Of a stretch of 64,000 nt of DNA, positions 15,774 to 31,615 are shown piece after piece (the first letter of the stretch is position 1; each line of letters starts with the position of its first letter). The stretch lies in contig JAFYRT010000067.1 in assembly GCA_017546805.1 (NCBI GenBank), positions 2,457 through 66,456 of the forward strand. The letters run 5' to 3'. Under the pieces are notes generated by a model. The model searched no databases and had not been told where the DNA came from. It saw only the letters and a list, made by a program, of their open reading frames with translations. This DNA is from Muribaculaceae bacterium (GTDB lineage Bacteria; Bacteroidota; Bacteroidia; Bacteroidales; G3-4614). The position numbers and the translations under genes are program-made.

Positions 15774-15827
15774 CAAATTGCAGAATATGTTTTTTTGACC
15801 TATATATACAAGCAAACCATTAAACAG

Positions 15828-15869
15828 AGAGATTGTATCTAAATAAAATATGATGCAATCTCTTTTTTT
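15828..15869 (+). terminator. Intrinsic terminator after the GLUG protein gene
   Basis: agagattgtatc / gatgcaatctct forms a 12-bp stem with one G-U pair and a 12-nt loop, followed by TTTTTT. Confidence 0.55.
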
Positions 15870-15919
15870 AGTATTAAATATTTTATATCTTTATCGAGTA
15901 AACCATAAATAAAAATTAT

Positions 15920-17707
15920 ATGAATAGAATTTACGTTTTAACCATTATGCTATTATTGTTTGTTTTCAATGCAAATGCAGATTATTGCAATAGAACAACA
16001 AATAGTAATTCATCAAGGTATCTGAAAAGTGTATCGTTTCAAGGAGGATATTACGAATTCTCTCCACTTTCCATAGCCACATCGGGATATTCTGCGATAT
16101 ATTATAATAAAACCTCAAAGGTTTTTTATGCAAATGCAGGCTCTACCATAACTCCACAAATAGATTACGAAGGAGCATGGATGCAAGGATATGTATATAT
16201 TGATTATGATAACGATGGTACATTTAACACAACAAACGAGTTGGTGGCATATAGCGGTTATATGCAAAATGGAGTTTGGCGTAATAGTAAAGGAGAACAG
16301 ATAGCAGATGGAGGTGTTTGTCCTCCAAGTACAGTACCGTCTTTTATTATTCCCGAATCTATGCCATCAGGAGATTACAGGATGAGGGTTAAAGTCGATT
16401 GGGATTCTCCAGATCCTTGCGGAAGAACATCAGCGACAGGTAACTCAATGGAACAAAACGGAGGAGCAATAGTGGATTTGACTCTTCGTTTATCAGGAGT
16501 AACACACAACTATACCATAACAATAGATAATCAATATACTAAAGAGTATATCTTGGAATGGTCGGATGAATTTGAAGAGAGACAATTGGATGAGAGGGTA
16601 TGGAGTAAAATAGAACCATATGAAAGCGGAAATCCGGATTGGAGAAAAAATATTTCGACCTATGATGGCTGTTTCGATTTTCGTGATGGCAATATTGTTT
16701 TAAGGGGAATACGTAATCCGGGAGAGGCAGAGACTCTTGATACACGAACTTATCTATGTGGAGGAATAGAGTCGTGGGGTAAGAAGAGTTTTAAGGACGG
16801 ACGTGTAGAGATTAGAGCTAAAACAACATCAGCACGAGGAGCATGGCCTGCATTATGGATGATGCCGGAAGACCAATCGGCTGGATGGCCAGGATGTGGA
16901 GAAATAGATATTTTTGAACACCTCAATTACGATTCGTTTGTATATCAAACCCTACATAGTAATTATACCTATAATGTAAACAAAGAGAATCCATTGTCGC
17001 ATATAACAGCATCGGTCGATGTATCAGATTATAATGTATATGGAGTAGAGTTGGCTTCAGACACAATAAAACTCATGCTTAACGATAACGTTACAATGGC
17101 ATACCCAAATATAGGAGCAACAGATCAGTTTCCCTATTCAAAAGAGTTCTATTTAATACTCGATATGCAGTTGGGTGGCTCTTGGGTAGGCTCGGTAACG
17201 GGCGAAAATTTACCTGTGGAGATGTATCTTGATTGGGTGAGGTTCTATAAAAGATACGAAACAGGGGGTAAATTATTGGTTAAGACACTTGAAAACAAAG
17301 TAATATCGTCAGGAGAAACAGTTCCTGAAAATACAGTTTTGTTAATAACTGCAACACCTATAGAGGGATATGTAATAGAATCGCTTGTAGTAAATGGAGT
17401 AGATGTGACAGCCGAACATAATGTTTCAGGAAGTTATGCATATTGTCCAACCACATCAACAACAATTGCAGCGACATATAAACCAAAATCAGCTTCAGTG
17501 GAAACAGTCGAGCAAGAGGAGAGTGTAGTATATGTGGCTAATAATAGGATTGTCGTTGTTTCGTCTAAACCTGAGAATGTTGCAATTTACAATATGTCTG
17601 GAATGGTCGTAGACAAAAGAGTGGTGGAGAGTAGAATAGAGATTGAAAGAACTTCAGGCATCTACATCGTAGTAGTGGGAAGTAAAGCATATAAAGTAAA
17701 ACTGTAG
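15920..17707 (+). CDS. Glycoside hydrolase family 16 (beta-glucanase type). It has an N-terminal GEVED-like beta-sandwich domain, an InlB-B-repeat-like domain and a T9SS C-terminal domain.
   Basis: 595 aa. The GH16 catalytic motif GEIDIFEH (ExDxxE) is preceded by WPALWMMPED. The N-terminal domain ...YIDYDNDGTFNT...GDYRMRVKVDWDSPDPCG is shared with the sialidase. The C-terminus is VAIYNMSGMVV...GIYIVVVGSKAYKVKL. Confidence 0.85.
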   Translation: MNRIYVLTIMLLLFVFNANADYCNRTTNSNSSRYLKSVSFQGGYYEFSPLSIATSGYSAIYYNKTSKVFYANAGSTITPQIDYEGAWMQGYVYIDYDNDGTFNTTNELVAYSGYMQNGVWRNSKGEQIADGGVCPPSTVPSFIIPESMPSGDYRMRVKVDWDSPDPCGRTSATGNSMEQNGGAIVDLTLRLSGVTHNYTITIDNQYTKEYILEWSDEFEERQLDERVWSKIEPYESGNPDWRKNISTYDGCFDFRDGNIVLRGIRNPGEAETLDTRTYLCGGIESWGKKSFKDGRVEIRAKTTSARGAWPALWMMPEDQSAGWPGCGEIDIFEHLNYDSFVYQTLHSNYTYNVNKENPLSHITASVDVSDYNVYGVELASDTIKLMLNDNVTMAYPNIGATDQFPYSKEFYLILDMQLGGSWVGSVTGENLPVEMYLDWVRFYKRYETGGKLLVKTLENKVISSGETVPENTVLLITATPIEGYVIESLVVNGVDVTAEHNVSGSYAYCPTTSTTIAATYKPKSASVETVEQEESVVYVANNRIVVVSSKPENVAIYNMSGMVVDKRVVESRIEIERTSGIYIVVVGSKAYKVKL

Positions 17708-17878: not shown

Positions 17879-18223
17879 TTAATTTTGAGTATTTTCGATA
17901 TCAGAACCTGCGTTCTCCTCGATATTCATGATTTCAGAATTGATAGCAGCTTCTTCGATAATGCTCTCTTGGATTGCTGAAGAGCTTTCGCTTCCGTTAG
18001 AGATGAATGCTGCAGAAACAATACTTAAAATAACAATTGCGGCAGCTAAAGTCCAAGTTGCTTTTTCAAGGAAGTCTGTAGTTTTTCTAACTCCCATAAT
18101 TTGATTTGAAGAAGCAAATCCTGAAGCTAAACCTCCACCTTTTGAGTTTTGTACCAACACAATTAAAATCATTAATACTGCTGCAAGTACGATAAGAATA
18201 GTAACAAATGTGAATGTTGTCAT
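17879..18223 (-). CDS. secG: Preprotein translocase subunit SecG
   Basis: 114 aa. The sequence MTTFTFVTILIVLAAVLMILIVLVQNSKGGGLASGF... followed by a second TM helix is the classic SecG layout. Confidence 0.88.
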   Translation of the reverse strand: MTTFTFVTILIVLAAVLMILIVLVQNSKGGGLASGFASSNQIMGVRKTTDFLEKATWTLAAAIVILSIVSAAFISNGSESSSAIQESIIEEAAINSEIMNIEENAGSDIENTQN

Positions 18224-18226
18224 TTT

Positions 18227-18874
18227 TTATTCGGTTTTTACATTAATAATCAATTTTTCTAAAAATCTAATTTGGTCTGCAAAGTAAATATTTTTTTCTG
18301 GATTTTTCAAACTTATGCCCTTAATAATTTCCAAAGCGCGCTCATATTTACGCTGTTTGATATATATATGAGCCAAACTCTCAGTGAAAAAAGACTCTTC
18401 GATAGGTTTTGAATACTCCTCTTCCTCTAAATTGTCAATATCTTCATCAGAACTATTTGTCTCCTCTTCGCTCTTTTTGAAATCACCGTTTTCTACAGCG
18501 TCTAAAAATGAGTTTATTGATTCTATTTGTTTGTCCGAACTCTCCTCAATAACATCCTCGCTCAATGTGAAATAATCAGAATTGTATCCTTCGCTCATAA
18601 TAATCTCATCGAGAGAAGATTCTGCAACTCCGCTCGATTCTAAAAAATTATCGATAGTAGAGAATTTGTCTTGTTCCTTTATCTTTTGCTCTGTATGAAT
18701 CTCAGTATTGGTTTTCTCCGTTTCCGATTTTGTGTTGTGCATAAACGCTGCCAACTTTTTTAATTCTTTTGATAGTACAACAATATTGTCTCCCGGCTTA
18801 TTCATAGCCGAAAGTAATGTGTTGCGTTTATATCCGTCAGAATTCTTCTGTTGTTTGTTTTTATCGGAACTCAT
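18227..18874 (-). CDS. Acidic protein with a C-terminal TPR-like helix pair, hypothetical
   Basis: 215 aa with a highly acidic middle part. The C-terminus reads ESLAHIYIKQRKYERALEIIKGISLKNPEKNIYFADQIRFLEKLI. It lies between lptE and secG with gaps of 7 and 3 nt. Confidence 0.55.
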   Translation of the reverse strand: MSSDKNKQQKNSDGYKRNTLLSAMNKPGDNIVVLSKELKKLAAFMHNTKSETEKTNTEIHTEQKIKEQDKFSTIDNFLESSGVAESSLDEIIMSEGYNSDYFTLSEDVIEESSDKQIESINSFLDAVENGDFKKSEEETNSSDEDIDNLEEEEYSKPIEESFFTESLAHIYIKQRKYERALEIIKGISLKNPEKNIYFADQIRFLEKLIINVKTE

Positions 18875-18881
18875 ATTCTTA

Positions 18882-19394
18882 TTACCAATTTGCTACAGTA
18901 GCATTAAATATAACATCGGCAAGCTCTTTGGTTATTTCATCAATAAGCTCATCCTGAACGTCAGTAAGCAATCTTGAACTATCAAAATCTCTATAAGCAC
19001 TGAATGTTTCGTCTATGCTGAATTGAGGATTTTTAGTATCTGTATATTTTACTCTTACTCTAACAGTTAATCTTGTTTGTGATGCGTATGCATCGCTTTT
19101 TACAGCCTGAGGAGTTAAGTCGTATCCTGTGATTTCTCCTTCTACTTGTAAGTCCCCGTTGGTTCTAACCATACTCAAACGGGTTTGTCTGATATAAATA
19201 TCTTGCAGTGCCTCATTGAATGCTTGAGCAAGCGGAGGGTATACAAGAGCCGCTCTGATTGGGAAATCAGCTATTGAAATAGTTTTGGTTGTATTATAGT
19301 CTATTGATGCTCCATTGAATTTGTATGAAATGGTGCATCCGCAAAAAACAACACAAACTGCAAATATGAGAATATGTTTAATTCTTTTATTCAT
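18882..19394 (-). CDS. lptE: LPS-assembly lipoprotein LptE family
   Basis: 170 aa with lipobox VFCGC. The size and the sequence ...ISIADFPIRAALVYPPLAQAFNEALQDIYIRQTRL...GEITGYDLTPQAV... are typical of Bacteroidota LptE. Its ATG overlaps the stop of the upstream activator gene by 1 nt (TAATG). Confidence 0.7.
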   Translation of the reverse strand: MNKRIKHILIFAVCVVFCGCTISYKFNGASIDYNTTKTISIADFPIRAALVYPPLAQAFNEALQDIYIRQTRLSMVRTNGDLQVEGEITGYDLTPQAVKSDAYASQTRLTVRVRVKYTDTKNPQFSIDETFSAYRDFDSSRLLTDVQDELIDEITKELADVIFNATVANW

Positions 19395-20611
19395 TAATCC
19401 AAGTTATACTCTTTAATTTTTCTGTATAGTGTTCTCTCCGAAATTTTCAACTCTTCAGCGCATTTTTTTCGTTTGCCGTTGTTTCGCTCAAGAGACTTTT
19501 TTATCATCTCCTTTTCTGCATCCTCGAGAGATATGGCACTATCTTCGATATTCTCAATATTGATAGTCTCTATATTATCGTATCTGCTGTGTTCTTTAGT
19601 CTCTATATATGGAGTATGTATGATATCTTCGGCAATATTCTCTTCATAATTATTTTGTTGTAATCCATGAAGAATATTTCTGTCTGTCAATTCAAGTTTC
19701 GATTTTATCTCATTTATCTCCTTGCGCATATCAAGGATGATTTTATAGAGGATCTCTCGCTCTCCATTGATAAAAGAGTTGCTTTCAGTTTTGTTTATGG
19801 CAGGCAGATTTGGTCCGTCATAAACAGGAAGGTATGATTCCAATACTTCAGCGCTAATCTCTCTCGATGTCTCCAATATCGATATTTGTTCCGTAATATT
19901 CCTTAGCTGTCTTATATTTCCAGGCCAACGATAAGAAAGCAGTAGTTTCTTGGCTTCCGGTGAAAGAGTTATGGCCGGCATCTTGTACTCCTCTGCAAAG
20001 TCAGAGCTAAACTTTCTGAATAATAGGAATATGTCATCAAGTCTGTTTCTGAGAGGGGGAAGTTCAATGTGGATAGTATTCAATCTGTAAAATAAATCCT
20101 CTCTGAATTTGCCCTCCTGAATAGCTTTGGTCATATCCATATTGGTTGCCGCAACAATTCTTACATCTGTTTTTTGAACGGTAGAAGAACCAACCTTTAA
20201 AAATTCTCCGTTTTCAAGAACCCTTAAAAGTCTGGCTTGAGTTGTCAGGGGAAGTTCTCCAACCTCATCAAGGAAAATGGTTCCACCATTTCCCTCCTCA
20301 AAATAACCCTTTCTATCTGTTAATGCACCAGTAAAAGCTCCCTTCTCATGTCCGAATAGTTCAGAGTCGATAGTTCCTTCAGGTATGGCTCCGCAGTTTA
20401 CAGCAATATACTTTTTGTGTTTTCTTGCGCTATATTCGTGGATGATTTTAGGAAAAAACTCTTTACCGGTACCGCTTTCTCCAGTAATTAATACCGATAT
20501 ATCGAATCTTGCAACCTGTATTGCGCGGCTGATAGCTCTGATTAAAGAGGGAGTATTTCCAATAATATTAAACCTCTGTTTTATGTTGTTAATATCGGGA
20601 TTGTTAATCAT
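19394..20611 (-). CDS. Sigma-54-dependent transcriptional activator (bacterial enhancer-binding protein) with no N-terminal sensory or receiver domain
   Basis: 405 aa. It has Walker A GESGTGKE, the sigma-54 contact loop GAFTGA, DEVGEL, and a C-terminal Fis-type HTH (CAEELKISERTLYRKIKEY). The AAA+ domain starts about 15 aa from the N-terminus. Confidence 0.9.
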   Translation of the reverse strand: MINNPDINNIKQRFNIIGNTPSLIRAISRAIQVARFDISVLITGESGTGKEFFPKIIHEYSARKHKKYIAVNCGAIPEGTIDSELFGHEKGAFTGALTDRKGYFEEGNGGTIFLDEVGELPLTTQARLLRVLENGEFLKVGSSTVQKTDVRIVAATNMDMTKAIQEGKFREDLFYRLNTIHIELPPLRNRLDDIFLLFRKFSSDFAEEYKMPAITLSPEAKKLLLSYRWPGNIRQLRNITEQISILETSREISAEVLESYLPVYDGPNLPAINKTESNSFINGEREILYKIILDMRKEINEIKSKLELTDRNILHGLQQNNYEENIAEDIIHTPYIETKEHSRYDNIETINIENIEDSAISLEDAEKEMIKKSLERNNGKRKKCAEELKISERTLYRKIKEYNLD

Positions 20612-20790: not shown

Positions 20791-20798
20791 TATCTTTG
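20791..20798 (+). promoter_or_regulatory. -7 box TATCTTTG for the DUF3575-like operon
   Basis: Exact TAnnTTTG match, 67 nt upstream of the ATG at 20865. Confidence 0.45.
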
Positions 20799-20864: not shown

Positions 20865-21452
20865 ATGAAAATATATTCGAAAGAGTTTTTTTCTTCATTG
20901 GTAGCTCTTGCAAAGGGTAAGAGAGGGGTGCTTTTTATTGTGCTTCTCTTTTTGATGCCATTGTCGGTGCACTCTCAAAAAATAGCAGTAAAAACAAATC
21001 TATTGGAGTGGGCAACAATATCTCCTAATATCTCTGCCGAGTTTGTTGTATCTCCAACAATGTCGTTAGATTTATCTGCATCATTCAATAAGTGGGTGCC
21101 TTTTGCCAATGCAAAATATGACCATCTTAAAATTCAACCTGAGTTGAGATATTGGTTTCAAAGACCTATGGCTCAGCATTTTTTAGGATTCTCGCTTTTG
21201 TATTTCAACTATGATATGATGGCAAAAGGAGTGTGTCATGAAGGACAAGCCATAGGAGGAGGTTTTTCATACGGATATGATTTTGTATTAAGCAAAAGGT
21301 GGAATTTGGAGTTGACAGCAGGAGTAGGAGCTGTTTATCGTTTCGAAAAAAAATATGATGAGGGAACAAAACCTCCATATAAAAACAATGGAAATACTTG
21401 GGGTATAGCGCCAATTAATTTAGGAGTAACACTCTCTTATGTTATATTCTAA
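20865..21452 (+). CDS. Small outer-membrane beta-barrel protein, DUF3575-like
   Basis: 195 aa with a signal peptide. The sequences KIAVKTNLLEWATISPNISAEFVVSPTMSLDLSASFNKW...LKIQPELRYWF and the C-terminal LGVTLSYVIF match my memory of DUF3575. Confidence 0.65.
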   Translation: MKIYSKEFFSSLVALAKGKRGVLFIVLLFLMPLSVHSQKIAVKTNLLEWATISPNISAEFVVSPTMSLDLSASFNKWVPFANAKYDHLKIQPELRYWFQRPMAQHFLGFSLLYFNYDMMAKGVCHEGQAIGGGFSYGYDFVLSKRWNLELTAGVGAVYRFEKKYDEGTKPPYKNNGNTWGIAPINLGVTLSYVIF

Positions 21453-21467
21453 CAAAAACAAAAACAG

Positions 21468-23468
21468 ATGAATAAAATAACAAAAATATTTCTCTTGATA
21501 GCAACATTGATTGTGATGTTGCCAATTGAACTTTATGCGCAGAATATACGTGTGACAGGAGTTGTTCGTGGAAACAATGGAGAACGAATACCCGGAGTTT
21601 CTATAACAGATTTAGGACGTCAAAGAGTATTGGGAATAACCGATGAAGACGGAAAATATTCTGTCGTTTTAGCTCCTAATGCAACAATCTCGTACACCTG
21701 TATGGGTTACAATGAGAAGAAGGAGAAGGTAAAAGGTAGAGTTTCAATTGATGTTGAGATGGAATCAACAGCAAAAGAGATAGACGAGATTACAGTAACA
21801 GCAAGTTTGATTGGAAATGTTGTGTTTGAGCCATCTGAAATTGAGATTGTAGGAAACTATTTTCACCTGCGCACAAGATTTAAAGTGCCCAAAGAGCTAA
21901 TGGCATTAGACCACAGATTGGTCGTACAACCAACAATATACAATGTAACACGTCGTAAAACAATGTTCCTACGTCCTGTCGTATCTGATGGAGCAGAGTA
22001 TCTTCGTACTCAAGAGAGAATGTATGGCTTTGATATAACAAAAGACCCATTGTCTCCATATATTCAAAAGAGCCAAATGTCTCGTCAAGGCGAGATAATT
22101 GCATACCACGACTCTGTATATATTGAGAACAACCGTGATGACTATCGTTCAGATGTTTTTTTGTCGGTAGAAGATTATCACAAAATAATTAAGGTAGACA
22201 CAATGGTTATTGCAAAAGGAACAGTAAACCCATTGAGATTCTTTGATTATCAAATCGATCCAAGAGATTTGACAGATTCAATATATATACCAAAACCTGA
22301 GTTGGCATTGCGTAACGACAAAGGAGAGGTGCATCTGACTTATCTTCCTGGTAAAGCGACAATCGATGAGAAAGATTCTCACAACCTATCGGAATTGAGA
22401 AAGTTGGAAGAGAGAATAGCATTCCTTGAACAAGACCCTGATGCAAAATTGCAGTCAATGTCAATTTTCGGAGTCTCTTCGCCAGAAGGAAATTACAGAA
22501 AGAACGTGGAGTTGGCTGATGCTCGAATGAGAGCGGCAAGAGATAAAATATTGTCATATATAAGCCCTGCAACAAAAGAGTTCTTGAAAGTTGAATCTCA
22601 ATCAAAGGTAGAAAATTGGTTGCCCGTAGTAGAGATGATGAAACAAGACTCTTTACACAAAAAAGCAGCAGAACTACAAGAGATAATAGATAAGTATCCA
22701 AACAGTTTGAATTCACAATTCGATAAAATCAGGAAACTCTCATATTATCGCTCTGTCATCGTTCCTTATCTTTCTAAATTAAGAAGGGTGGAGTATGATT
22801 TCGGATATTCAATGTATCGTATATTGAAAGACGAAGAGATATTGGAGTTGTATGAACAAAATTACACACAACTATCTCGTTACGACTTTTATAGAATGTT
22901 CCAAATGGCAAAAGATGATGCTGAGAGAGAAAAACTATATTCACAAGCATTGTCGGTATATCCTAAATTTATGCTGGCTGCAAACAATTTGGCAACCATA
23001 TACATCCGTCAAGGTCGTTCAGATATTGAATTGTTGAAGCCATTTGTAAAAGAGGGGGCGCCTGAAGAGGTGTTGACCAATCAAGTTATAGCGGCTTTGG
23101 ATAAGTGGCAATATCAAACTGCGGACTCTGTGGCGTCATTGATGCCTTCATCTGCCACAACAGAGTACATCAGATCAATAACTCGTATATTAAACGGTAA
23201 TTATACCGAGGCTCTATCGCAATTTGCAGAGGAGGGAGGAATTAATGAGGTATTGATATTGCTTGCGATGAAACGTAACGAAGAGGCATGGGAGAAAGCT
23301 CAAGACCTACCCGATGATTCGGCAAGAGTATTGTATGTTAAAGCAATAATAACAAACCGATTGGATATGGTTGTTGAGGCCATTGATTATATAGAAACAG
23401 CATTAGAGATGGATCCCTCATTGCGAGAGATAGCAGAGATTGATGCCGATGTAAAAGATTTGTTGTAG
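21468..23468 (+). CDS. Secreted multidomain protein of unknown function. Domains in order: CarboxypepD_reg-like, DUF3868-like, OmpA-like remnant, C-terminal TPR.
   Basis: 666 aa with a signal peptide. The CarboxypepD_reg-like part is IRVTGVVRGNNGERIPGVSITD...DGKYSV. The DUF3868-like part is NYFHLRTRFKVPKELMALDHRLVVQPTIYN...FLRPVV. The OmpA-type motif is IFGVSSPEGNYRKNVELADARMRAARDKILSYI. The C-terminal third contains TPR-like helices. Confidence 0.55.
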   Translation: MNKITKIFLLIATLIVMLPIELYAQNIRVTGVVRGNNGERIPGVSITDLGRQRVLGITDEDGKYSVVLAPNATISYTCMGYNEKKEKVKGRVSIDVEMESTAKEIDEITVTASLIGNVVFEPSEIEIVGNYFHLRTRFKVPKELMALDHRLVVQPTIYNVTRRKTMFLRPVVSDGAEYLRTQERMYGFDITKDPLSPYIQKSQMSRQGEIIAYHDSVYIENNRDDYRSDVFLSVEDYHKIIKVDTMVIAKGTVNPLRFFDYQIDPRDLTDSIYIPKPELALRNDKGEVHLTYLPGKATIDEKDSHNLSELRKLEERIAFLEQDPDAKLQSMSIFGVSSPEGNYRKNVELADARMRAARDKILSYISPATKEFLKVESQSKVENWLPVVEMMKQDSLHKKAAELQEIIDKYPNSLNSQFDKIRKLSYYRSVIVPYLSKLRRVEYDFGYSMYRILKDEEILELYEQNYTQLSRYDFYRMFQMAKDDAEREKLYSQALSVYPKFMLAANNLATIYIRQGRSDIELLKPFVKEGAPEEVLTNQVIAALDKWQYQTADSVASLMPSSATTEYIRSITRILNGNYTEALSQFAEEGGINEVLILLAMKRNEEAWEKAQDLPDDSARVLYVKAIITNRLDMVVEAIDYIETALEMDPSLREIAEIDADVKDLL

Positions 23469-23469
23469 A

Positions 23470-26367
23470 ATGAGAAAGATATATACATATAAAAGAATAG
23501 CAAGTTTGCGTTATGTGCTAATATTGGTGGTGGCGATGATTATCTCCACTTCCGAGTCGTTTGCACAGATGAACGCCTTGGATTATCGTTTGCAAAAACG
23601 ACCAAAGTCAGAAAAATTTGACAACCCCAAATTCATGGACAACACATTCCTAAGTGTTGCAACAGGTCCTCAATTTAACTTTTTGGCAGAGAAGGAGGGG
23701 TTTGAGGTAGGACCTACAATTCGTTATTATTTCGGAAAATGGTTTACACCTGTGATAGGAGCCAGATTCGGATTAGACATGTCGTTCTTATATGACAGAG
23801 GTTGGGAAACATTCGGCCTCTTCGGATTTAACTTGGATTATATGGCAAATATCACGGCTTTTGCACGAGGATATAACCCTGATCGTCTATTTGAGCTATA
23901 CGGAATTGCCGGAGTAACATACAAGCGCTCTTTCCAATACGGAAATGGTAAACATGTGTATGGCGGAGTGGCAGGATTCCAAGGTTCCTTTACAATATCG
24001 CCATTGGTGGATCTTTACATTGAACCCAAAGTCTCATTGGTGAATGATTCATACAATGATTCAAGAAAGGAGCAAAGACGTAAATTCGATTTAATCCCGG
24101 AGGTGACAATAGGAGCAACCTATAAGATGGTACCTGACGCGAAACGCAAAACAACTGAATTCACCAATACATCATTCAAGGATAATCTATTCTTTACTAC
24201 CGCATTTGGAGTACAACGAGTTACATCTCGTTTAATGGATTTAAAAGATAATAACTACGCTGGATTCAGCGGAATGTTAGGATTTGGAGGTTGGTTTAAT
24301 GGGGTTCATGGTATAAGATTGTCTGCCTTGGCAGGATTTGCTCCTTACATATCATCAGAATCGGGAGTATCGTCATCATCAACATTGATAAATGGAGTAG
24401 GGCGAGCAGATTATCTTGTAAATTACAGTAACCTTTTTGGTGGATACAACGAAAGAAGACTATTCAAACTTATAGGAATATTCGGACTTGAGTTGGCAGG
24501 AACAAAATACGAAGATACAAGTTGGAATTTGGCAGGAGGAATAGGATTAGGATTGCAAGGTGCGTTCCGTGTAAGCCCTACGGTTGATTTATTCATGGAG
24601 CCTCGAATGTCATTCTATAACAAAACATATACTCATGGAATAAATAACAGATTCGATAGTGTTGCTTCAATGTTATTTGGTGTAACATATCACAGTAGTG
24701 ACAATGAGTATAGAAAGGATAATGATGTGTTTGCTCACAAATCTAAAACAGACCACATGTTTGTTACTGCATCGGCAGGTATGGGAGCAACATATTCAAG
24801 GTATGATCAAAATCTTTCAGGGGGAGAATCATTGGCTTATCGATTTAATATCGGTATAGGAAAATGGTTTACAAAAAATTCAGGATTACAAATAACAGGA
24901 GGAGCCCTATTATTTGGAACTCGAAACCCAAATACAGATGCTAATGAGCCATATAGAGCAAGAACATTAACACTGGGTGCGGACTACTTGTTGAATATGA
25001 CAAATGTAGTTGCAGGGTACAGAGAGGACAGATTGTTTGAGGTGATTGCAGGAGCAGGAGCATCAGCTATATATCACCATTCAACATTCTATCCTGCATT
25101 ACAAACATTCCTAAGAGGAAACTTCAATTTGAAAAATAATTGGAGTGTATATGTTGAGCCACATGCAATATGGTCACCAACAAGACGTGTCTTTACAAAT
25201 ACAATAAGTACACGCAAGGCTGTGGTTATGACTGCCAATGTCGGAACATCATACACAATGAGAGGATATGATGCCGCATCATATCAAGAGTTCTCGGCAA
25301 CAGAGGGAAAACGACTATTTTTCTCATTGGGAGCAGGAGTTTCAGGAAATCTTGATAACAGATTGTTCTCCGACACTAAATTCAGAGTTGGACCCATTGG
25401 CTGTTTATCTGTAGGTTCATGGGCATCTCCTGTATTGGGATGGCGAGTGAATGTTATGGCTGAGAAACTTAATGGAACAACAAACTACGAGGATATATCT
25501 CATGCAGGACTTGAGGCAGACGTATTATTCAACTTTATGAATGCCGCATTAGGATATAAACCGTACCGTCTGTTCGATTTAAATCTAACAGCAGGAGTGC
25601 ATGCCGGATTTGCCGTGGTTAACCATAGTATGCGTTTCATCCCCGGTGTAAAAGGAAGTTTGCAAGGAGTCTTTAACATAACACCAAAGGTGGGAGTATA
25701 TGTTGAACCTCAATTGGCTGTATATTTGAACAAATTCGATGGCGCAAACAAACAAAAAACAAATGTGGCTTTGTCGGCAGGATTGATATATACAATGAAC
25801 AAGGCTGAAAGAGGTAATTCCATAGCCTCATCTGATATGGAGAATAAAAACATAATATCTCTTTATGGAGGATTGGGACTATACGGAAATACATTAATGT
25901 CAAAATATGAAGGTAAATTCTCTGATAAGATGACATATTCCGGAGGTTTGGCATATGGACGTTGGATTACTCCTGTTCATGGATTAAGATTGAACGCAGA
26001 GTATAACCATATTCAAAAACCATATCAATATATAGGAAAGAAAATGGGAGTTGCCGCAGCAAGGGTTGATTATATGTTAAGCCTTACAAACCTAATTACA
26101 GGATACGAGCCACAATCAAGATTCGGAGCAGTTATCTTTGCAGGAGCAGGAGTTGCAATGCCTGTAGTAGGAGAGGATGTTAAGGAGATAAAACCAACAT
26201 ATACAGTTGCGTTCGGATTAAAAGCGAATGTTCGTATAACAGACAACATAGATTTCTATCTTGAGCCTCGTGGAGTATTCTATGGAGATAAGATAGATAA
26301 TTATAAATCAAATGCAGGATTCGATGCAACAGGTATGTTGTTGGCAGGATTTGATTTTAAATTTTAG
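23470..26367 (+). CDS. 965-aa outer-membrane protein built of five tandem OmpA-like/8-strand-type beta-barrel modules, function unknown
   Basis: It has a signal peptide (SESFAQ). Five modules of about 160-170 aa share the motifs G(K/G/S/R)W(F/I/A)xPxxGxR, (A/L)DY(L/M)xNx(T/S)N...GYxxxRLF, and VxP(T/L/K)VD(L/F)(Y/F)xEP. The C-terminus GFDFKF is a BAM-type beta-signal. It starts 1 nt after the stop of the upstream gene. Confidence 0.7.
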   Translation: MRKIYTYKRIASLRYVLILVVAMIISTSESFAQMNALDYRLQKRPKSEKFDNPKFMDNTFLSVATGPQFNFLAEKEGFEVGPTIRYYFGKWFTPVIGARFGLDMSFLYDRGWETFGLFGFNLDYMANITAFARGYNPDRLFELYGIAGVTYKRSFQYGNGKHVYGGVAGFQGSFTISPLVDLYIEPKVSLVNDSYNDSRKEQRRKFDLIPEVTIGATYKMVPDAKRKTTEFTNTSFKDNLFFTTAFGVQRVTSRLMDLKDNNYAGFSGMLGFGGWFNGVHGIRLSALAGFAPYISSESGVSSSSTLINGVGRADYLVNYSNLFGGYNERRLFKLIGIFGLELAGTKYEDTSWNLAGGIGLGLQGAFRVSPTVDLFMEPRMSFYNKTYTHGINNRFDSVASMLFGVTYHSSDNEYRKDNDVFAHKSKTDHMFVTASAGMGATYSRYDQNLSGGESLAYRFNIGIGKWFTKNSGLQITGGALLFGTRNPNTDANEPYRARTLTLGADYLLNMTNVVAGYREDRLFEVIAGAGASAIYHHSTFYPALQTFLRGNFNLKNNWSVYVEPHAIWSPTRRVFTNTISTRKAVVMTANVGTSYTMRGYDAASYQEFSATEGKRLFFSLGAGVSGNLDNRLFSDTKFRVGPIGCLSVGSWASPVLGWRVNVMAEKLNGTTNYEDISHAGLEADVLFNFMNAALGYKPYRLFDLNLTAGVHAGFAVVNHSMRFIPGVKGSLQGVFNITPKVGVYVEPQLAVYLNKFDGANKQKTNVALSAGLIYTMNKAERGNSIASSDMENKNIISLYGGLGLYGNTLMSKYEGKFSDKMTYSGGLAYGRWITPVHGLRLNAEYNHIQKPYQYIGKKMGVAAARVDYMLSLTNLITGYEPQSRFGAVIFAGAGVAMPVVGEDVKEIKPTYTVAFGLKANVRITDNIDFYLEPRGVFYGDKIDNYKSNAGFDATGMLLAGFDFKF
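23644..26364 (+). repeat. Five protein-level tandem repeats inside the 965-aa ORF
   Basis: Approximate module limits are aa 59-220, 239-408, 430-597, 616-776 and 795-965, which correspond to nt 23644-24129, 24184-24693, 24757-25260, 25315-25797 and 25852-26364. The modules were aligned by eye on three conserved blocks. Confidence 0.75.
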
Positions 26368-26390
26368 ATAAAAACAATAATCATTTAAAG

Positions 26391-26421
26391 GACCTCAGAG
26401 ATACTCTTTGAGGTCTTTTTT
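26391..26421 (+). terminator. Intrinsic terminator closing the three-gene operon
   Basis: gacctcagag-atact-ctttgaggtc forms a 10-bp stem with one G-U pair, followed by TTTTTT. Confidence 0.7.
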
Positions 26422-26549: not shown

Positions 26550-27749
26550 ATGAAAAAATATCTTGTAACAGGAGCTGCCGGGTTTATAGGCGCAAATTTT
26601 GTCAAATATATGTTGTCAAAGTATGATGATATATTTATAGTAATACTCGATAAATTAACTTACGCCGGAAATTTAGGAACAATCAAGAACGAGATAGAAG
26701 ATAAACGAGTAGAATTCGTATTAGGAGATATATGTGACAAAGAAGCTGTATCAGAAATTTTTGCAAAATACGATATAGACTATGTTGTAAACTTTGCGGC
26801 AGAATCGCATGTCGATCGTAGCATCACCAATCCTCAACTATTTTTGGAGACCAATATTCTTGGAACGCAAAATATGTTGGAGTGTGCAAAACAATCTTGG
26901 ATGACAGGAAAAGATGCAAGTGGATATCCAACATATAAGCAAGGTAAAAAGTACCTTCAAGTTTCAACAGACGAGGTGTATGGTTCATTGACAAAAGATT
27001 ATGAAGAGCCTGTAGAATTGGAAATTGCCGATGAAGAAGTAAAAGTGGTTGTAAAAGGCAGAGATAATCTGAAAACATACGGCGACAGCTATTTTACAGA
27101 AGATACTCCATTAGACCCTCGTTCTCCATATTCAGCCTCAAAGACAGGAGCAGACTTGATAGTAAGGGCATATAGCGAAACTTATAAAATGCCAATAAAT
27201 ATTACTCGTTGCTCAAATAATTATGGACCATATCACTTCCCGGAAAAGCTTATACCATTAATCATTAAGAATATACTTGAAGGTAAAAAACTGCCTGTGT
27301 ATGGTAAGGGAGAAAATGTTCGTGATTGGCTATATGTAGAGGATCATGCCAAAGCCATAGATATGGTGTTGAATAAAGGACGTGAGGGAGAAGTATATAA
27401 CATTGGCGGATTTAACGAAGAGACAAATATAAATATCGTAAAATTGATAATAGATACCATCACGCGTATAATGAATGAAGAACCATCGTATCGCTCGGTA
27501 TTAAAAGTGCCTGTGGAGATGATAAATTACGATTTGATAACATACGTTGGAGACCGATTGGGACACGATATGCGTTACGCAATTGATCCATCAAAAACAG
27601 CAAAAGAGTTGGGATGGTATCCCGAGACACCGTTTACCGAGGGTATTGAAAAAACAATCCGTTGGAATTTGGAGAATCAACAATGGGTAGAAGAGGTTGC
27701 GAGCGGTGATTATCAAAAATATTACGAATCGATGTATAAAAACCGATAG
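26550..27749 (+). CDS. rfbB: dTDP-glucose 4,6-dehydratase
   Basis: 399 aa. It has the Rossmann motif [12 protein letters not shown], the SDR triad region STDEVYG and [10 protein letters not shown], and a long insertion (about aa 135-185) relative to enteric RmlB. Confidence 0.92.
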
Positions 27750-27772
27750 TATTACTATCAAAGGAATATAAA

Positions 27773-28660
27773 ATGATGAAAGGAATTGTATTGGCAGGAG
27801 GGTCGGGAACACGACTATATCCAATAACAAAAGGAGTGTCAAAGCAGATGCTCCCAATATACGATAAACCGATGATATACTATCCTATATCGGTATTGAT
27901 GTTGGCAGGAATTCGTGAAATATTGATTATATCAACTCCCTCTGACCTGCCAGGCTTTAAACGTCTATTAGGCGATGGCTCGCAAATAGGTGTAAAATTC
28001 AGTTATGCAGAGCAACCATCTCCCGATGGATTGGCACAAGCCTTTATCATAGGAGAGGAGTTTATAGGTGACGATGCCGCATGTATGGTATTGGGCGACA
28101 ATATCTTCTATGGACAAGGTTTTTCAGCAATGTTGAAAAATGCAGTGGCAAAGGCAGAAAATGGAGAAGCAACAATATTCGGATATTGGGTAAATGATCC
28201 AGAGCGTTATGGAGTTGCAACATTTGATGAAGAATTTAATGTAACCTCAATAATTGAGAAACCCGAAAATCCCAAATCAAATTATGCAGTAGTTGGTCTA
28301 TATTTCTATCCCAACAGAGTGGTTGATATAGCCAAAAGCATAAAACCTTCAGCACGAGGAGAGTTGGAGATAACAACAGTAAATAATGTATTCAAGGAGG
28401 AGCAAGGATTAAAAATATCACTATTGGGTCGTGGTTTTGCATGGTTGGATACAGGAACACATGAATCTTTGTTTGATGCATCAAACTTCATAGGAACAAT
28501 AGAAAAACGACAGGGACTCAAGGTGGCATGTCTTGAGGAGATAGCATTCCGTAACAGATGGATAACAGCAAAAGACCTATTGGCGATAGCTGAACCTATG
28601 AAGAAAAATCAGTATGGTCAATATTTGATAAATTTAGTAGAGGAGTACTCCAATAGATAG
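27773..28660 (+). CDS. rfbA: Glucose-1-phosphate thymidylyltransferase
   Basis: 295 aa. It reads [37 protein letters not shown]... The start could be the second Met at 27776. Confidence 0.95.
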
Positions 28661-28669
28661 GATAAAGTT

Positions 28670-29083
28670 ATGGCACTCGATAAAGTAAAATTGGTGGAAT
28701 TACCCAAGGTTGTCGATTTCAGAGGAAATCTCTCGGTGATAGAGGAGATGAATCAGATACCTTTCGAGATAAAGAGAGTATATTGGATATATGATGTTCC
28801 CGGAGGAGAGAAACGATATGGGCATGCATTTAAAGAGCAGCACGAATTTATAGTTGCCCTTTCGGGATGTTTCGATGTCATACTCAATGATGGAAACGAG
28901 GAACGTGTGATTACTCTCAACAGATCATATAACGGAGTATATGTACCTAATAGAATATGGCGAAGAATAGAGAACTTCTCAACTAACTCTGTTGCATTGG
29001 TTTTGTCGTCAACACATTATTCTCAAGCAGACTATATTGATGACTATAATGAATATCTTCAATATTTAAAAGACAATGAATAA
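28670..29083 (+). CDS. FdtA/QdtA (WxcM-like) sugar 3,4-ketoisomerase cupin, divergent copy
   Basis: 137 aa. It reads DFRGNLSVIEE...PFEIKRVYWIYDVPGGEKRYGHAFKE. The canonical RGxHAHK motif reads RYGHAFK here. Confidence 0.7.
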   Translation: MALDKVKLVELPKVVDFRGNLSVIEEMNQIPFEIKRVYWIYDVPGGEKRYGHAFKEQHEFIVALSGCFDVILNDGNEERVITLNRSYNGVYVPNRIWRRIENFSTNSVALVLSSTHYSQADYIDDYNEYLQYLKDNE

Positions 29084-29507
29084 AAAGCTATATAACATAT
29101 CTGATTGCAGGTTAATAGAATTGGGAAAATATTACCGCCCAAACGGAAACCTTACCGCTGTTGAAGGAGCAAACAATGAGATGGGCTTTGATATAAAAAG
29201 AGTCTATTATATTTATGATGTGCCTGCAACAAGCGATAGAGGAGGACATGCACATAAAGAACTTATGCAGTTAATAGTTGCAGTAAGCGGAAGTTTTGAT
29301 GTTTTGGTTGATGATGGCAAGAAGATAAAGACAGTAACGTTGAATCGCCCTAATATGGGCTTATTGCTACCTCCGGGCATTTGGCGAGAGATAAAAAACT
29401 TCTCATCAGGAGCGGTAACATTGGTATTGGCATCAGCACCATACGATGAGGCGGATTATGTTCGTACTTATGCCAAATTCATGGATTATAGAGAATCTCT
29501 TAAGTAG
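29076..29507 (+). CDS. FdtA/QdtA (WxcM-like) dTDP-4-dehydro-6-deoxyglucose 3,4-ketoisomerase, canonical copy
   Basis: 143 aa. It reads GFDIKRVYYIYDVPATSDRGGHAHKELMQLIVAVSGSFDVLVDDG. It overlaps the upstream paralog by 8 nt (ATGAATAA). Confidence 0.78.
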   Translation: MNKKLYNISDCRLIELGKYYRPNGNLTAVEGANNEMGFDIKRVYYIYDVPATSDRGGHAHKELMQLIVAVSGSFDVLVDDGKKIKTVTLNRPNMGLLLPPGIWREIKNFSSGAVTLVLASAPYDEADYVRTYAKFMDYRESLK

Positions 29508-31615
29508 TTGACAATAAGCGAATCTTTTATAAAGTCCACAATATTGCAATACCCCTTATTGGGGTATTTTTTGTTATTATTAACCCATTTCGTATCAAAA
29601 GCGAACCAATCTATTTTCTCAGGGTTGTTGCCAAGTTTAAGGGTGTTGAAAAACAGATTCCAACGTTCGTAGTATAAATCCTTTAGAATGCCGTTCCACT
29701 CTTTGTGGGCATAATCTCTCAACCCACCGTTTTCCGATGCGTTATTATCACCCCAAGTGGTAATTTGCACCTTGGCGTTCCATTCGTACAAATTGCGTTC
29801 TTTGGGAGTTTTACCCATCTTGCGTGCGGAATCAATCCATTTGCCAACCATAAACTCGTTACGGCATGACAATAGTTTGTCCTGTAATAAAATAAGGTTA
29901 AGGAACTCGTCACTCTTTTCATCAAACAACTCACTATTGCCTTTGTTGTATGCACACTTAATATCTTCCAAAACCAATCTGCCTTTTTCGCTAATGGCTT
30001 GGCGAAGAATATCAGTCAAATCGTATTCGAAGTTGTTGTTGTCTCTGTATCTCTCGGCAACTTCAGCCATAATTATAGCTGCTTTAATAACATCTTCAGA
30101 ATTATAATAATCTTCAGGGTTTGCCCATTTCGACGCGGATTTTACATCAAGAGAAGGTCTTGCGCAGAATACAGACTCGTGAGTTCCTTGCTGTTTGTTC
30201 TCTTTAGGAGCATTATAAATTGATTTGCCTAAGATATCCCACACTTGTAAAAGAGTAGAGTCGCAAGTGCCATACCTTGCAGTAACATAATCTTTGAGCC
30301 ACTTCTCCCTATCAAATCTCTTCTCTCTCCAAGCAAGCTCGGTTAATAACTCAAACATCATAGGGTTATTCTCAATACCTTCGGGAGTCATGCCAATACC
30401 CTTTAGTGATGAATTGTTGTTTTCTTTGAGGTTGTAAAAACCATCAACAACAGCATCAAACTTGCCATGCAAACCAACGTTGCCTCCAAAATTAAGGAGC
30501 ATACAATACGTCCAATCGTGAGAGTTGTACTCTTTCCATTGAGTGGCACTTTCGCTATGCAAATCCAAAATCAGTAAATCTCCCTTCTTAAGAGGAGTAA
30601 TCATCTCTTTGTTGGGGTTGCCTTGCCAACCTTGTACTACCCATACAGCATCTTCGTTGCAACGTTTCATTGCTCCCATAATTGATTTTCCTGCTACTGC
30701 CATGTCAACCCCCTCGGTAAGTCCGCCTTCGTGGAAGGGGTCTATGGCATAAAAGTCTGCTTTACCGAAAAGTTTTTCTTGTTCGCTGTAGTATATGTCA
30801 GCTATACGATTGAAATTTGAGTCGTTTGGTAATATAAAGAATGGGCGTTTATATCCACACCAAAGACCGGTGTTGACAGCATCAATATTCAATTTCTCTT
30901 TGGCATTACTCGGAATCATGCCACAGTAACCAGGAAAAACAGGAGCAATTCCAAAATCTCTCATTCGTTCAACAATCCTTTGTTGAAGTGTAATTTGTCG
31001 TTTATACCATCGAGAGTAATTCGCACCGCCCCAACCCTCAAGGTTATTCATAAGCCACCATGCCGAGAAGGCAGGGCCGGCAATAAACTCATTAATCTCC
31101 TTGTTGCTGTATCCAAGTTTTTTAAGAGTATTAACCCAAACGCCCTCACTGCCTGTAACTGCTAATGACAAATTAATGCCATGCAATGCCATCCAATCAA
31201 TTTCTCTCTCCCAACGTTCCCAATCCCAAAAAGCCATAGAGTATGAGAATGTGCAGAAGTTAAGATTGTATCGGTATTTTACATTGCATTCAATATAAAC
31301 AGGTTTGTCGAGTAAAGGAAGCGAGTCGGGTAGAGTGGTACTCATGCTGTTCCATGAAAGATGAATACCTGCATGGTATTTTAGATACCAATTAATGCCT
31401 GACGCAATAGAGACATAGTTATTCCCTTTTACAACAATTTTATTCTCTTTTGATGAAAGTTCAAAAAAGTCTTTGCTGTTATCTGTAATCTCTATCTCAA
31501 ATTTTTCTGAAGCACCTTTCTCTATTCTCTCCAGCATGCCCACAATAGGGTTTGCATTCACTCCAATAAGAGAGAATGCAAACATTAAAGATATGATGAG
31601 AATAGACCTGTTCAT
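29486..31615 (-). CDS. Alpha-N-acetylglucosaminidase (GH89, NAGLU homolog)
   Basis: 709 aa with a signal peptide. The sequence YSMAFWDWERWEREIDWMALHGINLSLAVTGSEGVW...INEFIAGPAFSAWWLMNNLEGWGG closely parallels the human NAGLU core. Confidence 0.9.
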   Translation of the reverse strand: MNRSILIISLMFAFSLIGVNANPIVGMLERIEKGASEKFEIEITDNSKDFFELSSKENKIVVKGNNYVSIASGINWYLKYHAGIHLSWNSMSTTLPDSLPLLDKPVYIECNVKYRYNLNFCTFSYSMAFWDWERWEREIDWMALHGINLSLAVTGSEGVWVNTLKKLGYSNKEINEFIAGPAFSAWWLMNNLEGWGGANYSRWYKRQITLQQRIVERMRDFGIAPVFPGYCGMIPSNAKEKLNIDAVNTGLWCGYKRPFFILPNDSNFNRIADIYYSEQEKLFGKADFYAIDPFHEGGLTEGVDMAVAGKSIMGAMKRCNEDAVWVVQGWQGNPNKEMITPLKKGDLLILDLHSESATQWKEYNSHDWTYCMLLNFGGNVGLHGKFDAVVDGFYNLKENNNSSLKGIGMTPEGIENNPMMFELLTELAWREKRFDREKWLKDYVTARYGTCDSTLLQVWDILGKSIYNAPKENKQQGTHESVFCARPSLDVKSASKWANPEDYYNSEDVIKAAIIMAEVAERYRDNNNFEYDLTDILRQAISEKGRLVLEDIKCAYNKGNSELFDEKSDEFLNLILLQDKLLSCRNEFMVGKWIDSARKMGKTPKERNLYEWNAKVQITTWGDNNASENGGLRDYAHKEWNGILKDLYYERWNLFFNTLKLGNNPEKIDWFAFDTKWVNNNKKYPNKGYCNIVDFIKDSLIVNYLRDSL

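Follow-up and report, generated by a model that had tools for sequence, protein, structure and literature searches.

A 64,000-nucleotide stretch of a Muribaculaceae genome (contig JAFYRT010000067.1 of assembly GCA_017546805.1, positions 2,457 to 66,456 of the forward strand; hereafter the window) encodes a 965-amino acid (aa) protein that contains five tandem modules, and which we call the poly-barrel. Its gene occupies positions 23470–26367 of the + strand, stop codon included, and is the third of three genes in a putative operon; its start codon lies 1 nt past the stop codon of gene 2. The close homologues of the protein are, without exception, unannotated ‘hypothetical proteins’ for which no Pfam domain has been precomputed. 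The hydrophobic N-terminus (aa 1–32, positions 23470–23565, + strand) is a predicted signal peptide with a putative cleavage site after ...SESFA and before Q. The two residues that flank this site, A32 and Q33, hardly vary among orthologues. The signal peptide is followed by a conserved stretch of 25 aa (aa 34–58) that is predicted to be periplasmic and in which L41, Q42, and K43 are invariant across the orthologues.

The remainder of the protein is divided into modules that are separated by short linkers. Module 1 comprises aa 59–220 (23644–24129), module 2 aa 239–408 (24184–24693), module 3 aa 430–597 (24757–25260), module 4 aa 616–776 (25315–25797), and module 5 aa 795–965 (25852–26364), all on the + strand. 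These limits come from a profile hidden Markov model (HMM) built from the modules of 20 orthologues and from AlphaFold2 models. The HMM envelopes in the poly-barrel (aa 59–220, 240–408, 430–597, 616–776, and 796–965) each cover model positions 1–163. They agree to within one residue with a preliminary description of the sequence, which had divided the protein by eye into five modules of about 160–170 aa.

The poly-barrel is a repeat of five homologous modules. In a MAFFT alignment of the modules, twelve columns are invariant, and the three conserved blocks listed in the preliminary description appear in the same order in all five. Module-versus-module blastp comparisons yielded 36–65 bits and 22–32% identity for all ten pairs. 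Smith-Waterman scores for these pairs were 89–159, as compared with 30–35 ± 4–7 for shuffled sequences (200 shuffles per partner for each pair), corresponding to z = 10.7–25.6. Similarity among the modules is far beyond chance, where the preliminary description had allowed that no significant internal similarity might be found. The modules end in GATYKM, GVTYHS, GTSYTM, GLIYTM, and GFDFKF, respectively. As had been pointed out from the letters alone, only the last of these ends in Phe, which gives the protein a canonical C-terminal Phe β-signal.

Barrel fold and closure

The full-length AlphaFold2 model, for which a 20-row orthologue alignment served as input, contains eight strands of 11–17 residues in every module, 40 in total (mean predicted local distance difference test score (pLDDT) 72.5, predicted template modeling score (pTM) 0.43). 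Each module has a short helix after strand 4, and the modules are joined by 18–21-residue linkers that contain short helices. In module 1, for example, the strands span aa 59–70, 79–91, 96–109, 113–127, 141–155, 162–175, 180–192, and 206–219. Mean strand hydropathy in a family set of 1,147 modules, pooled from 223 distinct family proteins, alternates with a period of two residues (autocorrelation −0.41 at lag 1 and +0.41 at lag 2). This pattern is a signature of transmembrane β-strands that face lipid on one side and the lumen on the other. The models and the hydropathy support the earlier designation of the modules as eight-strand-type units, and we regard them as predicted eight-stranded, transmembrane-type β-barrel units.

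Neither Pfam nor NCBIfam gave an above-threshold match to the full-length protein or to its modules taken singly; the sole hint, a weak match to PorT/SprT at E = 1e-4, fell far below its cutoff, and OmpA_membrane (PF01389) matched neither the whole protein nor any single module even at E ≤ 10. Searches of PDB sequences with the whole-protein and module profiles likewise gave no meaningful match. At the Pfam gathering threshold, the poly-barrel also lacks a match to OMP_b-brl (PF13505) and OMP_b-brl_2 (PF13568). Three of its relatives, P0033 (119 bits), P0126 (62 bits), and P0156 (44 bits), do pass the PF13505 threshold. All three match the module profile at E ≤ 1e-59, and the Pfam and listed module stretches of P0156 overlap. 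These matches lend transitive support, and transitive support only, to a tie between the modules and a recognized small-barrel family. Among the significant Foldseek matches listed, all 165 for the whole-protein model and all 235 for a model of two modules are outer-membrane barrels.

The preliminary description had called the modules ‘OmpA-like’, and had supposed that five concatenated units would form either a string of barrels or one very large barrel of about 40 strands. The OmpA label holds for the fold, with a TM score of 0.63 to the OmpA transmembrane domain, but not for the sequence, in which no OmpA, DUF3575, or other Pfam barrel match was found. As to the two arrangements, residue covariation and the two-module model argue for the string of barrels and against the single large one.

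Mean-field direct coupling analysis (DCA) of single modules (1,126 alignment rows; effective number of sequences (Meff) 926) reveals seven antiparallel hairpin ladders that join strands 1–2 through strands 7–8, with column sums of ~36, 78, 112, 163, 207, 246, and 288. Strand 1 is also coupled to strand 8. The closure pair, column 4 with column 161, has a score of 1.68, ranks 24th among 12,880 pairs, and lies ~6 standard deviations above the mean; the strongest anti-diagonal in the strand 1 × strand 8 block has a sum of 165. Non-adjacent strands account for 32 of the 100 top couplings. Couplings across the lumen connect strand 1 with strand 7 (columns 6–129 and 2–131), strand 2 with strand 8 (35–161 and 34–159), and strand 1 with strand 6 (4–119). 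Such couplings indicate a small closed barrel, across whose lumen these strands can touch; in an open 40-strand wall, they would lie five to six positions from each other.

DCA of paired modules (896 concatenated pairs of adjacent modules; Meff 738) places none of the 50 top couplings, and three of the 100 top couplings, between modules. The closure couplings within the two modules score 1.64 and 1.36, as compared with 0.05 for the contact expected of a fused barrel, between strand 8 of one module and strand 1 of the next. The region containing this contact peaks at 0.60, which is at background level (inter-module background, 99.9th percentile: 0.63). The strongest inter-module couplings (A94–B94, A131–B94, and A94–B132) link the same lumen positions, G94 and E131/P132, in adjoining barrels; the lumen networks of neighbouring barrels could have degenerated in concert, or the couplings could be a phylogenetic signal.

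The two-module AlphaFold2 model covers modules 4 and 5 (aa 600–965; 14-row input alignment) and was free to build one 16-strand barrel or two 8-strand barrels. It contains eight strands per module (pLDDT 79.3, pTM 0.54) and has the OmpA transmembrane domain as its only geometric match (9fzc_A and 9fzd_A; TMt 0.63 and root-mean-square deviation (rmsd) 5.6 Å over 187–191 columns). Superposition on 14–16-strand barrels (OmpG, porins, and autotransporters) yields TMt ≤0.31 and rmsd 17–24 Å.

A fusion of all five modules into one giant barrel of ~40 strands is not without precedent. Solan et al. (PMC8346858) report real single-barrel families of 38 and 40 strands (families 002 and 003), and two fused eight-strand barrels can form one larger barrel, according to work of Arnold et al. 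as it is cited there. Moreover, large barrels are the top whole-protein Foldseek matches by E-value, with long 3Di alignments. These alignments lack a geometric fit (TM ≤0.32, rmsd 17–38 Å); since TM scores to large barrels are this low, the whole-model search is uninformative on architecture, and the two-module model was used instead. The background-level coupling between strand 8 and the following strand 1, the cross-lumen couplings, and the superposition on OmpA all speak against a giant barrel, as do the linkers of 19–26 aa with short helices that separate the modules, and we consider it very improbable. Even less can be said for a soluble or secreted β-sandwich repeat protein, the result of structure prediction that the preliminary description had named as contrary to its view: the lack of a direct match to a Pfam membrane-barrel model would suit it, but the eight long antiparallel strands per module with their period-2 hydrophobicity, the Phe β-signal at the protein end, the outer-membrane barrels found by Foldseek, the relatives whose modules pass the OMP_b-brl threshold, and the covariation pattern of a closed barrel leave it next to no probability.

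We thus favor, with a probability of roughly 0.85, five independently closed OmpA-like eight-stranded barrels on one chain, that is, the (8)5 form of the poly-8 multibarrel architecture (see next section). Several points weigh against this reading. The confidence of both AlphaFold2 models is moderate, and their input alignments are shallow. The separation of the barrels in the models is judged from Foldseek TM scores. The DCA closure signal comes mainly from one strong pair, although couplings that cross the seam between strands 1 and 8 support closure. Finally, the support for any member of the family is computational, including that of Solan et al. 2021.

The predicted modules resemble the OmpA transmembrane domain (9fzc, 9fzd) in their eight antiparallel transmembrane strands (TM 0.63 over ~187 columns) and in a polar lumen with charged pairs, and they too probably have a structural or anchoring role, not a porin-like one. 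They differ in sequence (13–15% identity in the structural alignment and no PF01389 match), in the presence of five copies per chain, and in a conserved short helix in the strand 4–5 turn. Furthermore, the poly-barrel lacks an attached OmpA_C peptidoglycan-binding domain, a possible equivalent of which is encoded in the upstream gene 2.

Family and the poly-8 class

Although the preliminary description considered both of its arrangements unusual, tandem eight-stranded multibarrels of the Bacteroidetes have already been described computationally. The poly-8 multibarrel (MB) outer-membrane proteins, the first MB-superfamily of Solan, Pereira, Lupas, Kolodny, and Ben-Tal (PNAS 2021, PMC8346858), consist of 2–11 tandem eight-stranded barrels joined by linkers of 22 ± 13 aa. 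They occur only in Bacteroidetes, mostly in Prevotella and Bacteroides, and their barrel number evolved by amplification and deletion.

The poly-barrel shares the features of this class. Its chain holds five full-length eight-stranded barrels that do not overlap, where the class calls for at least two, and each barrel has its own closing signal in contact prediction, here the strand 1–strand 8 contact in the absence of inter-barrel pairing. Its linkers of 18–21 aa, and those of its family (median 22 aa, interquartile range 19–26, n = 924), lie within the published range. The Bacteroidetes host range and the variable barrel number also correspond. The poly-barrel therefore fits the poly-8 description as an unannotated five-barrel protein, not as a new kind of protein. 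There are several differences from the published account. Relatives of the poly-barrel reach 15 modules, as compared with 11 in Solan et al.; the main text of PMC8346858 gives no genomic context for poly-8, whereas a conserved three-gene operon is found here; and PMC8346858 proposes adhesion, whereas conservation here sits on the predicted periplasmic side. The operon, the conservation of internal β-signals, and the conservation of the periplasmic face appear to go beyond that main text. Literature searches for later or experimental studies of such proteins turned up Solan et al. 2021 and nothing else. The class is so far purely computational, with no poly-8 structure, localization, insertion mechanism, or function in the literature searched.

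The family is abundant in gut Bacteroidales. A HMMER search with the five-module profile retrieved 2,005 cluster representatives (clustered at 50% identity) at E ≤ 1e-3, of which 855 had E ≤ 1e-10. The best 150 of these 2,005 representatives have between 2 and 15 modules. The search for single-module homologs that had been proposed as a route to the duplication history found none among these 150, all of which have at least two modules. Among the relatives are P0033 (2,889 aa, 15 modules), P0052 (2,559 aa), and P0097 (2,427 aa), which have 11–15 tandem modules where the reported maximum is 11. A smaller relative, P0174 (608 aa), has two barrels joined by a long helical linker and followed by a 157-aa C-terminal region with a sub-threshold OmpA_C match (E = 0.0011), and resembles the ‘second poly-8 superfamily’ of Solan et al. 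This C-terminal extension was also tested as a homologue of the gene 2 product and is unrelated to it.

Among the 49 genome loci, every named host belongs to the Bacteroidales, apart from one record labelled Oscillospiraceae and two labelled simply ‘bacterium’. The encoded proteins contain four modules in Prevotella and Leyella, five in Caccoplasma, Coprobacter, Alloprevotella, and several Bacteroidaceae, six in Barnesiella, and seven in two further loci (L007 and L052). The window matches, at 96% identity, a metagenome-assembled genome of a species of Candidatus Caccoplasma, a genus that NCBI taxonomy places in the Bacteroidales as Bacteroidaceae incertae sedis. The module order 1-2-3-4-5 is kept in 29 close relatives. 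A seven-module relative, P0016, reads 1-2-3-4-3-4-5, which corresponds to a tandem duplication of the 3-4 pair.

The ends of the modules are conserved in internal as well as terminal positions. Terminal modules end in G-x-x-[Y/F]-x-F, with a final Phe in 88%, and Phe is the last residue of 175 of 200 proteins. The internal modules of the family close with G-x-x-Y-x-[L/M/F], with Gly in 90% and Tyr in 60%. Because the modules of the poly-barrel share a mere 22–32% identity, retention of the internal motif looks like the result of selection rather than a relic of recent fusion. Solan et al. (PMC8346858) leave open whether internal barrels keep their own sorting signals or whether one C-terminal signal suffices. 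The internal β-signal-like motifs bear on this choice between a single C-terminal signal and separate insertion of each barrel by the β-barrel assembly machinery (BAM).

Operon and partner genes

Two genes precede the poly-barrel gene on the + strand. Gene 1 (20865–21452) encodes a single DUF3575 barrel of 195 aa with a signal peptide (Pfam PF12099, E = 1.1e-52). Gene 2 (21468–23468) encodes a secreted, probably periplasmic non-lipoprotein of 666 aa, here called N666, with a PF13715 domain and TPR repeats. The intergenic gaps are 15 nt between genes 1 and 2 and 1 nt between genes 2 and 3. A terminator-like hairpin (26387–26419, + strand), formed by a 15-bp stem and followed by a T-run, begins 20 nt after the poly-barrel stop codon and would mark the end of the operon. 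At the other end, TATCTTTG (20791–20798, + strand), 67 nt upstream of gene 1, resembles TAnnTTTG, which we take to be the Bacteroides −7 consensus. The resemblance is weak, and no −33 TTTG element was found at the proper spacing from this motif upstream of gene 1; TATCTTTG is tentatively proposed as the operon promoter.

The order DUF3575–N666–poly-barrel is found in essentially all 49 genome loci, and in metagenome loci as well. The triad occurs in groups labelled Caccoplasma, Coprobacter, Barnesiella, Prevotella, Alloprevotella, Bacteroidaceae, and Muribaculaceae, and is kept down to ~21% identity of the poly-barrel, while genes outside of the triad vary between loci. The N666 gene is immediately upstream of the poly-barrel gene in nearly every locus. 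A DUF3575 gene adjoins the cassette in ~41 of 50 distinct loci and is directly upstream in most of them; in one (L024) it is downstream. N666 is the better conserved of the two proteins: between the window and Coprobacter species, it is 57% identical and the poly-barrel 37%. Orthologous operons in the cultured species Coprobacter secundus and Leyella stercorea make genetics and biochemistry feasible.

Three relatives (P0026, P0151, and P0167) carry a DUF3575 barrel (E = 1e-25 to 1e-27) as a C-terminal fusion to their poly-barrel. These fusions suggest that the DUF3575 barrel works next to the row of barrels. One locus (L006, 8001–11861) encodes a poly-barrel–DUF3575 fusion and has no separate DUF3575 gene next to the cassette. 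A derivation of the modules themselves from diverged DUF3575 barrels was considered and rejected: the module HMM scores ≤3.7 bits against five DUF3575 neighbours, and the hhalign probability is ≤3.7%. In Bacteroides and Porphyromonas, genes for single-barrel DUF3575 proteins neighbour DUF3868 genes and lie near fimbrial genes of the Mfa/Fim type. DUF3575 proteins have been detected in outer-membrane vesicles of P. gingivalis (PMC12937337), and in B. thetaiotaomicron a DUF3575 gene shares a gene block with DUF3868 and Mfa1 fimbrilin genes (PMC10434189). As in such single-barrel loci of Bacteroides and Porphyromonas, DUF3575 comes first in the operon and is followed by a gene for a multidomain secreted protein. 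Here, however, N666 and the poly-barrel take the place of DUF3868 and fimbrilins, and the modules are not detectably homologous to DUF3575.

N666 has a signal peptide that lacks a lipobox Cys. Its public annotation is limited to ‘carboxypeptidase-like regulatory domain-containing’ or ‘TPR repeat’ protein. The N-terminal domain (aa ~28–112) corresponds to CarboxypepD_reg (PF13715), which was matched in all 14 homologues scanned, and the N666 family profile matches the SusC N-terminus (8aa4_A) with E = 1.4e-18. In SusC transporters, the periplasmic N-terminal extension (NTE) has been described as an Ig-like fold on which transporter function, and possibly TonB-complex assembly, depends (PMC10350073). 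A conserved middle region and C-terminal TPR repeats make up the rest of N666. Residues 335–353 contain the motif G-x5-G-x4-N-x2-L-x3-R, in which G335, G341, N346, L349, and R353 are invariant and which has the spacing of the OmpA_C/Pal core; the position of the canonical Asp is occupied by Ser.

PorE (PG1058), a component of type IX secretion, offers a parallel to N666. PorE is a periplasmic protein with TPR, carboxypeptidase-regulatory-like (CRD), and OmpA_C-like domains that is attached to the outer membrane (PMC7192894, PMC5053529, PMC12773672). N666, too, has TPR repeats and a CRD-type domain, together with a possible OmpA_C-like motif, and is encoded beside outer-membrane barrels, as PorE has a barrel partner in PorP. 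PorE differs in being a lipoprotein with a WD40 propeller and another domain order; N666 has neither a lipobox Cys nor a detected propeller, and no type IX secretion system genes are linked to it. The likeness lies in shared domain types; it is an analogy and does not establish homology.

Proposed envelope role and surroundings

Outer-membrane barrels normally have both termini in the periplasm. If so, the odd-numbered connections between strands would be extracellular loops and the even-numbered connections periplasmic turns. Conservation in the family modules differs strongly between these two sets. The predicted outer loops, which are ~3–13 aa long in the poly-barrel, are gap-prone and almost unconserved (0.45 bits per column), versus 1.57 bits per column for the predicted periplasmic turns (Mann-Whitney p = 6.6e-9). 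The latter include a conserved W-F-T-P after strand 2 and a helix motif, NxTNxxxGYxPxRLF, between strands 4 and 5.

The lumen is the other conserved part of the module. An Arg in column 44 (strand 3) and a Glu in column 131 (strand 7) occur together in 944 of the 1,147 modules and are among the strongest couplings; in the poly-barrel, module 3 is the sole module with Gln-Glu in place of this pair. Further conserved columns are D69, G94, and Q117. OmpA has a polar, charged lumen with salt bridges that block the pore. By analogy, a conserved Arg-Glu pair within a polar, packed lumen would suggest that each barrel probably serves as a closed anchor and not as an open pore.

We conjecture that these proteins cooperate in the following way. 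Sec would export the poly-barrel to the outer membrane, leaving its linkers of ~20 residues in the periplasm, and BAM would insert the five barrels one after another by means of the β-signal-like motif that ends each of them. The resulting row of barrels, probably with the DUF3575 barrel, would form a fixed or rigid platform in the outer membrane. The repeated periplasmic turns and linkers of this platform could then dock the TPR protein N666, so that the poly-barrel, DUF3575 barrel, and N666 would make up an envelope scaffold or tether that is possibly linked to peptidoglycan. The conserved operon, with its second barrel and its periplasmic TPR/NTE protein, points to such an envelope role and away from adhesion. 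Nonetheless, we put forward a scaffold or tether function tentatively. Taken jointly with the architecture, which carries the greater weight, the whole explanation appears likely. A more speculative version of this idea, to which we give somewhat less credence than to the scaffold or tether as such, is that the cassette is an unrecognized envelope machine of the Bacteroidales, in which the TPR adaptor reads a periodic periplasmic face, made up of the conserved helix-turns and linkers of the barrel platform, and through its SusC-NTE-like domain and its possible OmpA_C-like domain couples the outer membrane to peptidoglycan or to a TonB/ExbBD-type partner in the inner membrane. If this were true, the cassette would be a natural system for studying how BAM inserts several barrels from one chain, since each internal barrel has kept a β-signal-like motif.

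The functional part of the model is weak in several respects. The inside/outside topology is one that we infer from the general rule on the termini of outer-membrane proteins, and the link between N666 and the barrels is inferred as well. The OmpA_C-like motif of N666 does not reach significance: OmpA_C (PF00691) has sub-threshold matches in 5 of the 14 members scanned, the best at E = 0.0026, hhalign of N666 with an approximate E. coli Pal sequence aligns the motif at E = 0.14, and a profile-versus-PDB search was not significant. Variable outer loops, moreover, would also fit a role in surface recognition.

Of the other functions considered, a multivalent surface adhesin, whose repeated outer loops bind repeating glycan or host epitopes with avidity, fares best. 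Adhesion was proposed by Solan et al. for the poly-8 proteins of gut Bacteroides and Prevotella, and OmpA-type barrels can be adhesins (PMC8346858); the predicted outer loops vary in both sequence and length, as do surface regions under diversifying pressure. These loops are, however, short and almost unconserved; most of the conservation lies in the lumen and on the predicted periplasmic face. The invariant partners in the operon, a second barrel and an NTE/TPR protein, include no surface lipoprotein or glycan-binding protein. An adhesin consequently strikes us as unlikely, although less so than the next alternative.

Certain eight-strand barrels act in transport or as enzymes, OmpW and PagP among them. 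The five barrels of the poly-barrel might similarly act as an array of small channels or lipid handlers of the OmpW, PagP, or FadL-like type, with a small hydrophobic or polar substrate conducted or modified by each, as the conserved polar lumen residues (R44, D69, Q117, and E131) and the LptE gene upstream on the opposite strand in the lineage of the window might indicate. This possibility is a slim one. Neither PagP, OmpW, nor OMPLA appeared among the Pfam matches, the PDB sequence matches, or the top 50 listed fold-search matches; the best structural match is OmpA, whose pore-blocking salt bridges the Arg-Glu pair resembles; and the flanking genes, LptE included, are not conserved across the family.

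The LptE gene belongs to a cluster that is divergent from the operon on the − strand (17879–20611). This cluster encodes a sigma-54-dependent activator (19394–20611), LptE (18882–19394), the product of an unannotated 215-aa open reading frame (ORF) (18227–18874), and SecG (17879–18223). The same arrangement recurs in two other loci (L001 and L007) but not in more distant ones, which indicates that its link to the operon is lineage-specific and lies outside the cassette.

Downstream of the operon, a dTDP-sugar gene set on the + strand (26550–29507) encodes a 4,6-dehydratase-like protein (26550–27749), a nucleotidyltransferase (27773–28660), and two FdtA/WxcM-like paralogues in tandem, overlapping ORFs (28670–29083 and 29076–29507). 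L001 has the same set, parted from the cassette by ferritin and cytochrome bd genes. A gene for an alpha-N-acetylglucosaminidase of the NAGLU family (29486–31615, − strand) converges on the second FdtA-like gene, with a 3′ overlap of 22 nt. Farther upstream, positions 12183–17707 (+ strand) encode a 1,196-aa GLUG-motif protein followed by a 595-aa protein with GEVED, GH16, and DUF6383 domains, both of which are probably secreted or surface proteins.

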